A DNA stretch of 64,000 bases from an uncultured bacterium (GCA_963721685.1 CAVRJJ010000001.1:4555-68554), one strand, 5' to 3'. Numbered from the stretch's first letter, positions 21,025 through 25,093 are shown. The notes: a model not told the origin generated them from the letters alone. A program made the numbers and translations.

Positions 21025-22038
21025 ATGATCCGAAACATTGCTCGTCTTTTAACCGCGGTTATTGCAGTTGGTGGTCTCGCGCTTTTTCATCAGGCGGAAG
21101 CCGCGGTCTCGCAGGGCCTGACGGTATCACCCCCAACCTACGAACTCACCGCCAATCCAGGGGACGTGTTAAGCAACACTATCCGAATCACTAATGAGTC
21201 GGATAACGCGGTTACCCTACAGGTAAGCGCCCAAGACTTTACGGTGGGAGGTGTCGAAGGCTCAGTTTCGGTACTAGATGATATAAAAGACCCCAACGCT
21301 TTCGCGAAGTGGTTTCGTTTCCCCACCACCCAGGTCCAGTTAGCGCCAAAACAATCAGCCCTCGTGCCGTTTACCATCCAGGTTCCGCGCCAAGCGGAGC
21401 CGGGAGGCCACTTCGCAAGCGTCCTCTTTAACCCAGTGGTAAGCGCTAACGCGACTTCTACTGGTGCCCGGGTAATCCAACGGGTTGGCTCTCTAATACT
21501 AATGCGTGTTAGCGGCGATGTGAAAGAACAGGGAAGTATAAAATCGTTTGAGCCTAAAACCTTTAAAGGGTCGTGGCAAACGGTAACCGCCTCTGACGGC
21601 AAAACCAAAATCTATCTAGCTAGCGCTGAAGATTTGCGTAGCGAGCAGAAACGCCGTTTCTTTAGTAAGGGGCCGATTGCCTTTGATGTCCTCTTTAAAA
21701 ATTCCGGGAACGTCCATTTTAAGCCTGCTGGGACCGTTACTATTTATAATATTTTTGGTAAAAAGGTTGACCAGCTTGCCCTTAACCCCCGGAATGTGTT
21801 TCCCGGCGGGGAGCGGCGAATTACCGTGATATGGCCGAAAACCGACCTATGGGGTGGGTATTACCGGGCGCAGGTGGCAGCTGTATATGGGTCACAGAAC
21901 AAAATTGTGACCGCTGAAGCCAAGTTTTTCGCGTTCCCGCTGATTCCGCTCCTGATAGGCCTAGCTGCCCTGATTTTGATCGTCGTACTGCGTCGTCGCT
22001 TGATTAACGCAGCTCGAGTGCTCATTAGAGGGCGCTAA
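21025..22038 (+). CDS. DUF916/DUF3324-like cell-surface protein (CscA-like) with C-terminal membrane anchor
   Basis: signal peptide, 'LTVSPPTYELTANPGDVLSNTIRITNESDNAVTLQVSAQDFT' beta-sandwich pattern, C-terminal TM 'LIPLLIGLAALILIVVL' plus 'RRR' tail; size and topology match CscA-type proteins. Confidence 0.45.
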   Translation: MIRNIARLLTAVIAVGGLALFHQAEAAVSQGLTVSPPTYELTANPGDVLSNTIRITNESDNAVTLQVSAQDFTVGGVEGSVSVLDDIKDPNAFAKWFRFPTTQVQLAPKQSALVPFTIQVPRQAEPGGHFASVLFNPVVSANATSTGARVIQRVGSLILMRVSGDVKEQGSIKSFEPKTFKGSWQTVTASDGKTKIYLASAEDLRSEQKRRFFSKGPIAFDVLFKNSGNVHFKPAGTVTIYNIFGKKVDQLALNPRNVFPGGERRITVIWPKTDLWGGYYRAQVAAVYGSQNKIVTAEAKFFAFPLIPLLIGLAALILIVVLRRRLINAARVLIRGR

Positions 22039-22856
22039 TGTCCACGTGGGGGAGGATGCTACCCTTCGTTCTGCTGACAGGCCTGCTCTTTCACCTGGGC
22101 ACCCCTGCTCCTTTGCACGCGGTCGCCGCGGAGTCTGAGCTTGGCGCAGAGCTCCCCATCCAAACTGGGGGCATTCGTTTCCTGGGAGAAGCATCACCGG
22201 GAGCGCTGGTGACCTTTGAGCGTAATGGCGCCGTTATTGGCACTCAGGCAGCCCTAAGTGATAGCTCCTTTGACGCGACTTTTACTACCGAACCACTAGG
22301 CAGCGCTACCTACAGTATTAAGGCAACCGACCTTCATAGCCGCGATACCGCGGAAATAAGCTCAATTGCCACGATATTACCGGCCTTTACCACCACGCTC
22401 AGCGGCTACCTGCTGCCGACTACTTTTAGCGTGAGCTTCAATCCCATAAAACGCCCGCGGGCCCAGGTGATTGACGGGACTGCCCGTCATAATTCGGTGG
22501 TAACAACGTTGTGGAGCGGCTCAAAGTATAGCGACACCTTTACTACCCAGGCCACAACCGGAGCCAACGGCGACTGGACAGGAAGTTCGAACCAGACCCT
22601 CCATCTTGGAACCTATACTACTAGCGCCGTGGTGCAAGCACCTGGTGGGGCCCTAAGCCCTCAAACCCCCGACGCAAGCTTCCAGGTGGTATTATCGGCC
22701 GACCTGAATAATGACACAAAGGTAAACCTGACAGACTTCTCAATTTTAATGTTTTTCTACCTTCAGACGAATATCAATAAGCCTGCCGATATTAATGACG
22801 ACACGAAGACTAATCTAACGGATTTCTCAATAATGCTGTTCTTTTGGACAGGATAA
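22038..22856 (+). CDS. secreted dockerin-domain protein
   Basis: signal peptide; C-terminus has two 22-aa type-I dockerin repeats 'DLNNDTKVNLTDFSILMFFYL' and 'DINDDTKTNLTDFSIMLFFW' with Ca-ligand positions D1/N3/D5/N9/D12 intact. Confidence 0.55.
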   Translation: MSTWGRMLPFVLLTGLLFHLGTPAPLHAVAAESELGAELPIQTGGIRFLGEASPGALVTFERNGAVIGTQAALSDSSFDATFTTEPLGSATYSIKATDLHSRDTAEISSIATILPAFTTTLSGYLLPTTFSVSFNPIKRPRAQVIDGTARHNSVVTTLWSGSKYSDTFTTQATTGANGDWTGSSNQTLHLGTYTTSAVVQAPGGALSPQTPDASFQVVLSADLNNDTKVNLTDFSILMFFYLQTNINKPADINDDTKTNLTDFSIMLFFWTG

Positions 22857-22895
22857 AGGTATTATAAACATAAGCGTTTTTAAACATACAAGGTT

Positions 22896-23429
22896 ATGGA
22901 CCAAAACGAAACAAAAATAAAAACTGCATCAGCGCCATTGCGAATTATCAGCTTACTTTTAGTGGTGGCTGTTCTAGGCATTGGCACGCTGGCCTTTTTT
23001 CTTACCAGGGCAGCTCCCCCTAAGGCAAGTATTGGGACTTCCGGTGTAATTACCGAAGATAAGCATCAAGTAAGAGTGCCAATTATAATCGATACGGCAA
23101 ACCAAACGATGAACGCGGCTGAGATTCACCTTACCTTTGATCCCCGACAAGTTGAGGTAGTTGGGGTCGGCAAGGAGAAGTCCTTGATAAAGCTCTGGAT
23201 AACCGACCAACCGAGCTTTTCCAACGCCGCAGGGACTATTAGCTTTGCCGGAGGTGTTATGAACCCTGGCTTTAAGGGAAAGGGCCAAGTGGGGACGGTG
23301 ACGCTGCGATCCAAGGACCCTCTTTCAACCGAGCTACGCTTCGCTAACGGAACCCAAATTCTTTTGAATGATGGCAAAGGAACGGCCGTCCCGCTCGAAT
23401 TAGCGCCCATAAAGGTGACAATCCCGTGA
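22896..23429 (+). CDS. membrane-anchored cohesin-like domain protein
   Basis: N-terminal signal anchor then 'VRVPIIIDTANQTMNAAEIHLTFDPRQVEVVGV...GTISFAGGVMNPGFKGKGQVGTVTLRSK' resembling the cohesin beta-sandwich pattern. Confidence 0.4.
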   Translation: MDQNETKIKTASAPLRIISLLLVVAVLGIGTLAFFLTRAAPPKASIGTSGVITEDKHQVRVPIIIDTANQTMNAAEIHLTFDPRQVEVVGVGKEKSLIKLWITDQPSFSNAAGTISFAGGVMNPGFKGKGQVGTVTLRSKDPLSTELRFANGTQILLNDGKGTAVPLELAPIKVTIP

Positions 23430-25093
23430 AACACCTTGTTTACATGCTTCAGGCAGCCGTCTTGGCCGCTTCAGGTGTTTTAATCGCAGCTTCTCATCAA
23501 CCGGTGCAGGCAGCCGGCGGTGCCAGCTTCTACGCCGCTCCTGAAAGAACAAGCTATCAAGTTGGGGATGTGGTTAGGGTCGCTGTTCTCATTAACTCCG
23601 CCGGGCAGGCCGTTAACGCCGGTGAAGCGACCGTTACCTGGAGCCCGGGCCTCCAATACTCCTTTGTGTCAACCGCTAGCTCAATTTTTACCACCTGGAC
23701 CAGCGGGGGCGGAGCCGGGCCGGTGGGGTCGGCCGGCTCAGTTTATTTTTCCGGCGGCTTATCCAACCCCGGCTACAATGGCACCGCGGGCCGCGTGGTT
23801 ACGGTTATTTTCAACGCTACGCAGCCAGGAACCTTTAATGTCAATATTGCCGGTTCGCAAATTCTAGCCAATGACGGAATGGGAACTAACATTTTATGCT
23901 GTTCAACCGGCACAAGTTTTACCGTGGGCGCCAAGGCTCCTCCACAGCCGCTGATTTCGGTGTTTTCCAAAACCCACCCCAATCAAAGCCAGTGGTATAA
24001 AACCCATATCGTAAACCTCAACTGGTACGCAACAACCGCTATAGGGAACTACTCCTATAAGTTTGATAAAAGCCCTACCGGCAATCCAACCGCGCCCAAT
24101 AACGCTACCATCCAAACATCACAATCACTCAATGACGGCTTATGGTATTTTCACCTCAAAGGGGCGAACGCTTCGGGAAGCGCTACCATCCACTTTGCAA
24201 TTCGGATAGACTCGACAGCTCCGACGGCTTTTACGGTTACGCCCGATGCGACCAATGACCCGTCAAACCCCTCACCTAAGTTCAATTTCAGCGCGACCGA
24301 CACAACCTCTGGGATTGCCCACTATACTGCCAGTATTGATGGCGGCGCGGCGTTCCCGCTCGCTTCAGGCGGGGCTATCCCTAAGCAAAAACCGGGAGAA
24401 CACGTTATCGCGGTAACTGCCCATGACCGAGCTGGCAATACCACCGAGGCAAGCGCTAAGTTTAAGATCAGCGGCATAAAGCCACCAGCCATTCTTGGTG
24501 GTCCAATATCGCTGGTGGTAAATAAACCCATGAAGTTTGTCGGGCAATCATCGGCTACCGATACTATCCACGTTTATTTGAACGGGAAACAAATAGAAGA
24601 ATTTGTGGCTCGGACCAAGCAGGTTGCCAAAACGAAAAGCAAAGGGGGCGGAGGATTCCCCGATGGCATTACCTGGGAGTACACCTACCACCCGGAACCA
24701 ATTCCCGACACCTACAAAATTTATTTCAGCCGCACCACCACGCTTGGAGCCGAAAGCGAACCCAGTAAAGAACGCTCCGTCACCATTACCGCTACCGCTG
24801 CTCAAAAGCCGGAGAAAAAGCCCTTTGTGGTGGATACGGGACTCTTAATTCTGCTGCTGATTATCCTGCTGATTATCCTGGATGTCATTTTCTTCACGGC
24901 TTGGCGTTATTACGCTCATCTTCTTCATCGGACAAAAGGCAGGCCCGTGCCCGATCCGCTTCATGAAGCCTTAAAAGCGGTAGCGACATGGCGCCCTTTC
25001 GGTTGGTTGATAAGAGGGACGATCAAAGCTGAGCGCGGTTTTATCCAATTGGGGCCCGCAAAGCACACCTTACCCAACTCCAACAAGCACTAA
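23426..25093 (+). CDS. cell-surface protein: cohesin-like domain, Ig-like domain, C-terminal TM anchor
   Basis: signal peptide; N-terminal domain paralogous to the preceding gene ('VRVAVLINSAGQAVNAGEATVTWSP...GSVYFSGGLSNPGYNGTAGRVVTVIFNA'); 'SIDGG...AHDRAGN' Ig-like block; TM 'LLILLLIILLIIL' then a cytoplasmic tail. Confidence 0.4.
   Translation: MKHLVYMLQAAVLAASGVLIAASHQPVQAAGGASFYAAPERTSYQVGDVVRVAVLINSAGQAVNAGEATVTWSPGLQYSFVSTASSIFTTWTSGGGAGPVGSAGSVYFSGGLSNPGYNGTAGRVVTVIFNATQPGTFNVNIAGSQILANDGMGTNILCCSTGTSFTVGAKAPPQPLISVFSKTHPNQSQWYKTHIVNLNWYATTAIGNYSYKFDKSPTGNPTAPNNATIQTSQSLNDGLWYFHLKGANASGSATIHFAIRIDSTAPTAFTVTPDATNDPSNPSPKFNFSATDTTSGIAHYTASIDGGAAFPLASGGAIPKQKPGEHVIAVTAHDRAGNTTEASAKFKISGIKPPAILGGPISLVVNKPMKFVGQSSATDTIHVYLNGKQIEEFVARTKQVAKTKSKGGGGFPDGITWEYTYHPEPIPDTYKIYFSRTTTLGAESEPSKERSVTITATAAQKPEKKPFVVDTGLLILLLIILLIILDVIFFTAWRYYAHLLHRTKGRPVPDPLHEALKAVATWRPFGWLIRGTIKAERGFIQLGPAKHTLPNSNKH

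Follow-up and report, generated by a model that had tools for sequence, protein, structure and literature searches.

The Pam pilus of Candidatus Mycosynbacter amalyticus, the source of the NCBIfam model NF058581 (CPR_Pam_pilin_C), is built of pilins in which an N-domain is followed by a linker, given to the next subunit as a donor strand, and by a truncated immunoglobulin (Ig) acceptor domain at the C-terminus (Troman et al., 2026, bioRxiv 10.64898/2026.03.03.709456). Its chaperones PamC and PamD are PapD-like with a C-terminal transmembrane (TM) helix, its tip subunit PamT is acceptor-only, and its 32.8 kDa "pilus tether" PamR has an extra N-terminal strand, two fibronectin type III (FnIII)-like domains and a C-terminal TM helix (Troman et al., 2026). 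The words cohesin and dockerin are absent from the text and supplement of that preprint. Reported here is a locus in a 64,000-nucleotide (nt) stretch of DNA from an uncultured bacterium (GCA_963721685.1 CAVRJJ010000001.1:4555-68554, referred to as the window), where six closely packed open reading frames (ORFs) on the + strand, A to F, span positions 18622–25093. D is a secreted dockerin protein, and E and F, which follow it, are membrane-associated cohesin proteins. Very probably the cohesin-dockerin set is real and lies within a Pam-like pilus operon, and on balance D appears to be the basal tether of the pilus, docked on E or F.

D resembles PamR in its N-terminal beta-strand and two tandem Ig/FnIII-like domains, and, if A, B and C are what they are predicted to be, in being encoded together with Pam pilins and TM-anchored PapD-like chaperones. 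PamR, of ~300 amino acids (aa), is proposed to terminate and tether the filament and ends in a TM helix of its own; in D a dockerin stands in that place, and cohesin genes follow. The locus departs from a canonical Pam operon in this one defining feature, a tether without a TM helix.

The second point of comparison is the type I cohesin-dockerin pairs by which cellulosomes are held on the cell, e.g. those of C. thermocellum (OlpA/OlpC, 3ul4 and 4dh2; CipA-Xyn10B, 1ohz). These have the same duplicated 22-residue Ca module and nine-strand jelly roll, the cohesin is likewise on a cell-anchored protein, and the D repeats are near-symmetrical like those of dual-binding-mode dockerins. Unlike the type I pairs, the locus shows no enzymes, carbohydrate-binding module (CBM) or multi-cohesin scaffoldin, and the anchor is a TM helix, not a surface-layer homology (SLH) domain or a sortase linkage. 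D is also unusual in the hydrophobicity of its dockerin helices (FSILMFFYL, FSIMLFFW), its gene is grouped with pilin and chaperone genes, and the host belongs to the candidate phyla radiation (CPR). Non-cellulosomal modules, such as those of Archaeoglobus fulgidus (2xdh) and the GH33 and GH84 cohesins of Clostridium perfringens (2vo8, 2w1n), are among the best structural matches found here. They join toxins or glycosidases or have unknown partners, and none is linked to a pilus or lies in a conserved dockerin-then-cohesin operon.

Cohesins and dockerins outside cellulosomes are known in all domains of life, so their presence in a non-cellulolytic organism is not new in itself. Earlier literature treats those of CPR as cellulosome or glycan-binding parts, and full-text literature searches turned up no description of a pilus operon in which a cohesin-dockerin pair is an integral and conserved component. 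CPR make up a large share of bacterial diversity and live attached to host cells; how they build and hold filaments is only now being worked out.

Dockerin and cohesin modules

A preliminary description of the window recognized three + strand ORFs at 22038–25093, read as a dockerin protein followed by two paralogous, membrane-associated cohesin-like proteins in a non-cellulolytic context. All three ORFs are present (Table 1), and Pfam matches, the identity of E and F, AlphaFold2 models and Foldseek comparisons agree with that reading of their modules. The N-terminus of D is signal-peptide-like. As first described, its C-terminus consists of two 22-residue dockerin repeats, DLNNDTKVNLTDFSILMFFYLQ (aa 222–243) and DINDDTKTNLTDFSIMLFFWTG (aa 251–272, the end of the chain), and each holds the Ca ligands D1, N3, D5, N9 and D12. 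The repeats are identical to each other at 14 of 22 positions, thus a dual binding mode, or binding of E and F in turn, is conceivable. The match to Pfam Dockerin_1 (PF00404) has an E-value = 1.1e-4 and 22.7 bits, 0.2 bits short of the gathering score of 22.9. A phmmer search of PDB sequences with D gave 14 matches, of which 12, including the 12 best, are dockerins, the top one being CelS (1daq, E-value = 0.002).

Relatives of D show the module more strongly. Dockerin_1 is matched by 34 of 42 aligned members of the D family at an E-value of 1e-3 or better (best 1e-9), and two dockerin motifs lie in the final 70 aa in 81 of 85 related sources. Across the 81 sequences of the dockerin family D1 and D12 are invariant and N3 and D5 nearly so; F13, S14, I15 and W20 are also nearly invariant. 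Conservation of these last residues (helix DFSI(L/M)) exceeds the needs of Ca binding. The family core consists of a short N-terminal strand, two Ig-like domains (Big_6 in 28 and Big_13 in 20 of the 42 members) and the C-terminal dockerin. By a hydrophobicity check there is no TM segment in D or any of 120 homologues. A Pfam search of D showed Ig-like domains besides the dockerin and neither a catalytic domain nor a CBM.

E matches the Pfam Cohesin family (PF00963) with an E-value = 4.1e-5 and 24.3 bits, above the gathering score of 24.1, and 24 of the 27 members of the E family match as well. The AlphaFold2 model of E, made with 27 homologues, has a mean predicted local distance difference test (pLDDT) score of 92.1. 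It displays a helix at aa 13–38 and a nine-strand sandwich, the nine-stranded beta jelly roll of cohesins, with the cohesin domain at aa 44–176. In a Foldseek search of the PDB with this model the top 50 matches are all cohesins, type I leading (best 6kgc_A, E-value = 1e-7, template modelling score 0.74); an unrelated fold, the outcome that would have spoken against the cohesin assignment, was not found. The E-family profile gave weak matches only against the PDB (E-values 0.13–0.7), yet all five are cohesins. Searches of the PDB with the single sequences of E, F, pilin B and chaperone C were uninformative.

In the E family N73, A74, E76, S116, A118–G120, G133, L156 and N158–G162 are invariant. 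In the model they lie on strands 3, 5, 6 and 8 (counted in order). Type I cohesins bind dockerins through the 8-3-6-5 face (PDB 1OHZ). Judged from the model, the conserved residues of the E family would coincide with this dockerin-binding face.

The N-domain of F shares a 35% identity with E over 109 aa (E-value = 3e-15). F itself has no Pfam cohesin match, and 9 of 32 F-family members match PF00963. The model of F (pLDDT 83.6) shows a signal peptide, a cohesin-like domain at aa 33–168, and a C-terminal TM helix at aa 471–502 followed by a cytoplasmic tail of ~50 aa. Signal peptide and TM helix agree with the preliminary description, but the single Ig-like domain it assigned to F is replaced in the model by three beta-sandwich Ig-like domains (aa 177–261, 285–348 and 355–455). 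As modelled, these three domains would hold the F cohesin well off the membrane, and the E cohesin would lie close to it. Complete cohesin ORFs in related operons number 162; a C-terminal TM segment is present in 120 of them and an N-terminal hydrophobic segment only in 40.

Hidden Markov model (HMM) searches of the whole window gave D as the sole dockerin match and E and F as the sole cohesin matches. According to Pfam and the models E and F carry one cohesin each and no CBM. The "minimal scaffoldin" suggested earlier does not fit these proteins: with no enzyme or CBM on D, Ig-like domains only, and a single cohesin in each partner, the set looks like a pilus tether.

Conservation of the operon

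To collect neighbourhoods of D homologues, proteins were looked up by exact match and GTDB was scanned with one genome for each species. A relative of D is encoded in at least 550 of the GTDB species genomes, and the 80 best loci were kept. HMMs for pilin, chaperone, cohesin, dockerin and D core were built from alignments, and all ORFs of 84 loci were searched with them. Individual loci carry the prefix L below.

The same order recurs in ~80 species-level genomes: one or more pilin-like genes, a chaperone-like gene, the Ig-dockerin gene and one to five cohesin genes. At 75 of the 76 loci that could be evaluated, the dockerin gene is directly followed on its own strand by a cohesin gene, the median distance being 46 bp. 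Upstream of the dockerin gene a chaperone-like gene is found at 68 of 80 loci and a pilin-like gene at 47 of 66. The trio D, E and F had been considered self-contained, which is contradicted by this conserved order and by the overlap of C and D, where the stop codon of C and the ATG of D share 1 nt (TAATG). The trio is most likely the 3′ half of a six-gene pilus operon conserved across CPR and not an enzyme-display scaffold.

Among the 80 records, those named by lineage are nearly all from Patescibacteria lineages, e.g. Saccharimonadia, Kerfeld-, Kaiser-, Uhr-, Woese-, Nealson- and Moraniibacteria, Paceibacterota, WWE3 and CPR2. The closest named relatives of the window include a 78%-identical "Candidatus Saccharimonadia bacterium" protein, and together with the surrounding genes they suggest that the window is from a Saccharimonadia (CPR) genome. 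Eleven of the 80 records are labelled Gammaproteobacteria or Pseudomonadales, and one 'candidate division FCPU426'. The Gammaproteobacteria- or Pseudomonadales-labelled carriers of the operon are probably mislabelled bins.

Loci with 'uncultured Gammaproteobacteria' or 'Pseudomonadales' titles are L014, L022, L023, L036, L044, L066, L068, L082, L083 and L085.

Predicted pilins and chaperone

A and B both match NF058581 over its full length but weakly, A at aa 245–398 (model positions 4–148 of 148, E-value = 0.012, 15.6 bits) and B at aa 218–366 (E-value = 8.9e-4, 19.4 bits). Pilins at the same operon position in L002 and L005 reach 40–44 bits (E-values 2.5e-10 to 3e-11). Conservation in the pilin alignment is highest in the linker (consensus D.V.VSATVDPTLTF), in agreement with Troman et al. 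(2026) on Pam. No WxL domain was found in A or B by Pfam.

C shows a signal peptide, Ig domains of the WxLIP_PGBD/DUF916 type and a C-terminal TM helix at approximately aa 294–334. Its Pfam WxLIP_PGBD match has an E-value = 2.4e-5, which is under the gathering score, and its orthologues in L002 (8976–10001) and L003 (9054–9998) carry PF06030. C is thus predicted to be a PapD/WxLIP-like chaperone. The TM-anchored WxLIP, with two Ig domains, is the partner of WxL proteins in Firmicutes, and a beta-hairpin of it is predicted to enter the partner protein (Hassan et al., 2023, PMC10599100). C shares Ig-like domains and a C-terminal TM layout with the proteins of Firmicute WxL/WxLIP (DUF916-DUF3324) clusters, but genes for cohesins and dockerins are lacking there. 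A single family may include both the Pam chaperones and WxLIP, which would link CPR pili to the Firmicute WxL surface clusters.

The preprint of Troman et al. (2026) does not mention WxL.

D as a probable strand-donating subunit

Seven long variants of D (400–460 aa) carry an extra N-terminal region of ~190 aa. This region matches positions 6–184 of the 350 positions of the pilin HMM with E-values from 1e-28 to 1e-8, and the match consists of the pilin N-domain plus the linker 'VxVSATV', e.g. 'DHVVISATV' versus 'dgviVSatv'. Long D variants are therefore homologous to the pilin N-domain and donor strand. The good-quality alignment ends at the linker, and two Ig domains and a dockerin replace the acceptor domain. 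An apparent match beyond the linker in L017 and L014 was discounted as low-quality alignment. In short D proteins the mature N-terminal strand aligns to the pilin linker, e.g. SNTSVSATIP in P0052; in the window it reads AESELGAELP. A pilin N-domain and linker with no acceptor in the long variants indicates that D is a donor-only subunit. Judged by homology, and with the published polarity of Pam, such a subunit would be expected to end the chain on the side nearest the cell.

The core of D is also found with a different ending. A phmmer search with the core alone (aa 30–216, no dockerin) against 1.84 billion cluster representatives gave 163 relatives. For the 141 that were new, the chain ends with a dockerin motif in 94 and with a TM helix and basic tail in 19. 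In the TM forms of ~300 aa a signal peptide and an 'AESLSVSLQVG' strand precede two Ig domains, and a Pro/Ser/Thr linker leads to the TM helix, which is the architecture described for PamR. In L087 a pilin (E-value = 9e-44) and a chaperone (E-value = 1e-92) precede the TM tether, and a nucleoside diphosphate kinase gene follows. L090 and L091 show a giant protein, chaperone, pilin, second chaperone and TM tether, then unrelated genes. Searched in six frames at an E-value of 1 or better, these three loci gave no cohesin or dockerin HMM match. Cohesin genes follow 75 of 76 dockerin-type tethers versus none of three TM-type tethers (hypergeometric chance ~5e-5). At these loci the two endings are mutually exclusive, a dockerin with cohesin genes or an own TM helix with none. 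The simplest reading is that dockerin plus membrane cohesin replaces the TM helix.

A proposed cohesin-dockerin joint at the base of the pilus

A to F would form one operon for a Pam-type pilus whose filament is put together through donor-strand exchange, with A and B as the pilins and C as the membrane-anchored PapD/WxLIP-like chaperone. D would be the last subunit, both chain terminator and tether at the filament base. Its mature N-terminal strand would fill the acceptor groove of the proximal-most pilin, and since D has no acceptor domain of its own polymerization would stop there. The dockerin would then plug into the cohesin of membrane-anchored E and/or F in a Ca2+-dependent manner, and this joint would fasten the filament to the membrane. 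E, short and near the membrane, and F, with its three-Ig stalk, may divide the labour. With the dockerin docked on membrane cohesins, the joint would do the job of the TM helix in PamR of M. amalyticus. PapH, the terminator of chaperone-usher pili, follows the same logic: the last subunit donates a strand and cannot accept one, and growth stops at the base. PapH is not homologous, however. It has a pilin fold with a blocked groove and stays at the outer-membrane usher, whereas D wholly lacks the acceptor domain and is proposed to dock on inner-membrane cohesins. Extension of this mechanism to most CPR/Patescibacteria lineages is tentative and falls a little short of probable; there the cohesin-dockerin pair would bear the load between the cytoplasmic membrane and pili built by donor-strand exchange, would depend on Ca2+ and might be releasable or exchangeable.

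Several observations weigh against D as a pilus tether. The window pilins match NF058581 weakly, and all matches to this model, including those of the related operons, are under the NCBI cut-off of 55 bits. The N-terminal strand of the window D is diverged and the pilin N-domain is missing, for which reason its donor-strand role is taken from the alignment to relatives. In a profile-profile comparison the D family as a whole showed no significant match to the pilin family; only a minority of D proteins have the pilin-like N-domain, whose columns were dropped, and the link comes from searching individual long D proteins with the pilin HMM. The likeness of D to PamR and the apparent absence of cohesins in M. 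amalyticus are drawn from the text of the preprint, and the contrast of TM and dockerin endings counts three TM-type loci only. The N-terminal helix of E, taken as an uncleaved anchor, might be a cleaved signal peptide, which would leave a free soluble cohesin. Finally, one dockerin is accompanied by two cohesins here and by up to five elsewhere.

Part of this evidence would suit free-standing surface display, in which E and F hold D as an adhesin and the pilus genes nearby reflect co-regulation, not physical connection. Modules and anchors would be as real under surface display as under tethering, the Big_6 and Big_13 domains of D are typical of adhesins, and the window D has no pilin N-domain. 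Such a display is nevertheless rather unlikely when the order with chaperone and pilins is so tight and so widely conserved and the C and D genes overlap. Nor does it account for the long D variants, which are pilin/D chimeras that include the donor strand, or for TM-ended D relatives in the same pilus operons without cohesins.

The joint could also serve in assembly. E and/or F would then be an usher-like membrane platform that recruits D, or a filament primed by D, beside the chaperone; or D would be a distal or tip element that is released later. Pam systems have no dedicated usher, operons encode two or more different cohesin proteins with short and long stalks, and the pili of M. amalyticus are reported to untether easily, all of which would fit. 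A donor-only D is the wrong kind of subunit for a tip, however, as the published Pam tip subunit is acceptor-only and the base element donates its strand. The exchange of TM helix for dockerin also points to permanent attachment to the membrane, and an assembly role appears unlikely.

The C-terminal module of D might be an EF-hand-like stabilizer that binds Ca2+ but not the neighbouring cohesins. EF-hand_8 is matched by 5 of the 42 family members and EF-hand_7 by three, and the window D stays 0.2 bits under the Pfam dockerin cut-off. Against these matches stand the co-occurrence of dockerin and cohesin genes at 75 of 76 loci, the absence of cohesins where the dockerin is missing, and the near invariance of W20 and the DFSI(L/M) helix residues, more than Ca binding requires, which make a mere stabilizer very improbable. 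A cellulosome-like polysaccharide-degrading complex, to which the domain names alone would point and as which a metaproteomic study read expressed Shapirobacterales CPR cohesin and dockerin proteins, is rejected as scarcely credible, there being no catalytic domain or CBM in D, a single cohesin per protein, no dockerin-bearing carbohydrate-active enzyme in the window, and pilins and a chaperone as neighbours.

If D is tethered through a cohesin-dockerin joint as proposed, this would be the first plug-and-socket pilus anchor and a widespread native cohesin-dockerin role unrelated to cellulosomes, adding pilus anchoring to the uses of these modules. The Pam pilus described in 2026 would have a sister form that is far more widespread and whose tether consists of two polypeptides held together by a cohesin-dockerin bond. 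Cohesin proteins of varied stalk length would offer alternative docking heights or a hand-over path through the envelope. Hundreds of CPR "cellulosome" annotations would be reassigned and metabolic inferences, e.g. metaproteome "cellulosomes", corrected. Protein engineering would gain a small, orthogonal, naturally membrane-anchored pair.

Gene layout

Positions of the features are given in Table 1. D and E are 39 nt apart; E and F share 4 nt (GTGA). A probably starts at GTG 18685 (377 aa), not at TTG 18622, because the GTG equivalent to it is the start of the L006 orthologue and yields a normal signal peptide. F has an alternative start at ATG 23444 (549 aa), as in one gene call. A promoter and terminator scan of 18000–27500 gave results no better than shuffled sequence. 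The membrane protein gene directly 3′ of F is possibly the last gene of the unit.

Table 1. Features of the A–F locus, numbered from the first nucleotide of the window
Feature	Position	Strand	Remarks
ORF A, predicted Pam-type pilin	18622..19818	+	signal peptide, N-domain, linker/donor strand GVLVSAVVDSTLSF, C-terminal acceptor domain
ORF B, predicted second Pam-type pilin	19897..20997	+	49% identical to A; linker GITVSATVDPTLNF, C-terminal motif AGTYTGKVVYTCTATF
ORF C, membrane-anchored, chaperone-like, PamC/PamD-like	21025..22038	+	WxLIP_PGBD match, C-terminal TM
ORF D, secreted tether candidate, 272 aa	22038..22856	+	Big_6, Big_13, Dockerin_1
Dockerin module of D, aa 218–272	22689..22853	+	repeat 1 = 22701–22766, repeat 2 = 22788–22853
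ORF E, small cohesin protein, 177 aa	22896..23429	+	TM helix 22932–23009, cohesin 23025–23423
ORF F, large cohesin protein, 555 aa	23426..25093	+	cohesin 23522–23929, Ig-like 23954–24790, TM 24836–24931
Multi-pass membrane protein directly 3′ of F, 144 aa	25194..25628	+	137-aa orthologue at the same place in L006

Variation among related operons and neighbouring genes

A giant ORF (1750–4400 aa) lies 5′ of the pilins in many related operons, e.g. L002 (354–6734), L003 (327–6863), L005 (1–6762), L090 (637–6051) and L091 (3–5261); there is none beside the operon of the window. That of L090 matches Peptidase_M23 and Laminin_G_3. The giant ORF is possibly a tip adhesin.

L049 (11697–12404, − strand) and L076 (14462–15181, − strand) encode proteins of 235–239 aa that combine an N-terminal TM helix, a cohesin and a C-terminal dockerin in one chain. 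They could be adaptor-like, chaining cohesin-dockerin links. An extra protein of ~230 aa is found in the dockerin-type operons of L032 (8383–9084) and L053 (7844–8539) and consists of one D-like Ig domain, a TM helix and a cytoplasmic coiled-coil-like tail. In L001 (11026–12915), a relative with 66% identity, the dockerin gene and the first cohesin gene are separated by four small genes (163, 115, 108 and 79 aa), and a second pilin and chaperone pair and an IS1595 transposase come after the cohesins. SEML1_0315, the essential dockerin-domain protein of Southlakia (Wang et al., 2023), was rejected as an orthologue of D, being a 927-aa stand-alone gene in a different context.

Beyond the membrane protein gene of the window, a 68-aa ORF (25846–26052, + strand) and a glycosyltransferase family 2 (GT2) gene (26099–27337, + strand) were not counted in the operon, as they are absent from that place in the closest relative, L006; a 179-aa ORF after the GT2 gene is likewise absent there. 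The GT2 synthase resembles the poly-beta-1,6-GlcNAc synthase PgaC/IcaA (E-value = 1.5e-41, far under the equivalog cut-off). The 68-aa ORF has no N-terminal signal peptide and ends in LLPQTGG, a hydrophobic stretch and the basic tail KTLRK, which is similar to a sortase sorting signal. Firmicute WxL/Csc clusters include a small LPXTG protein.

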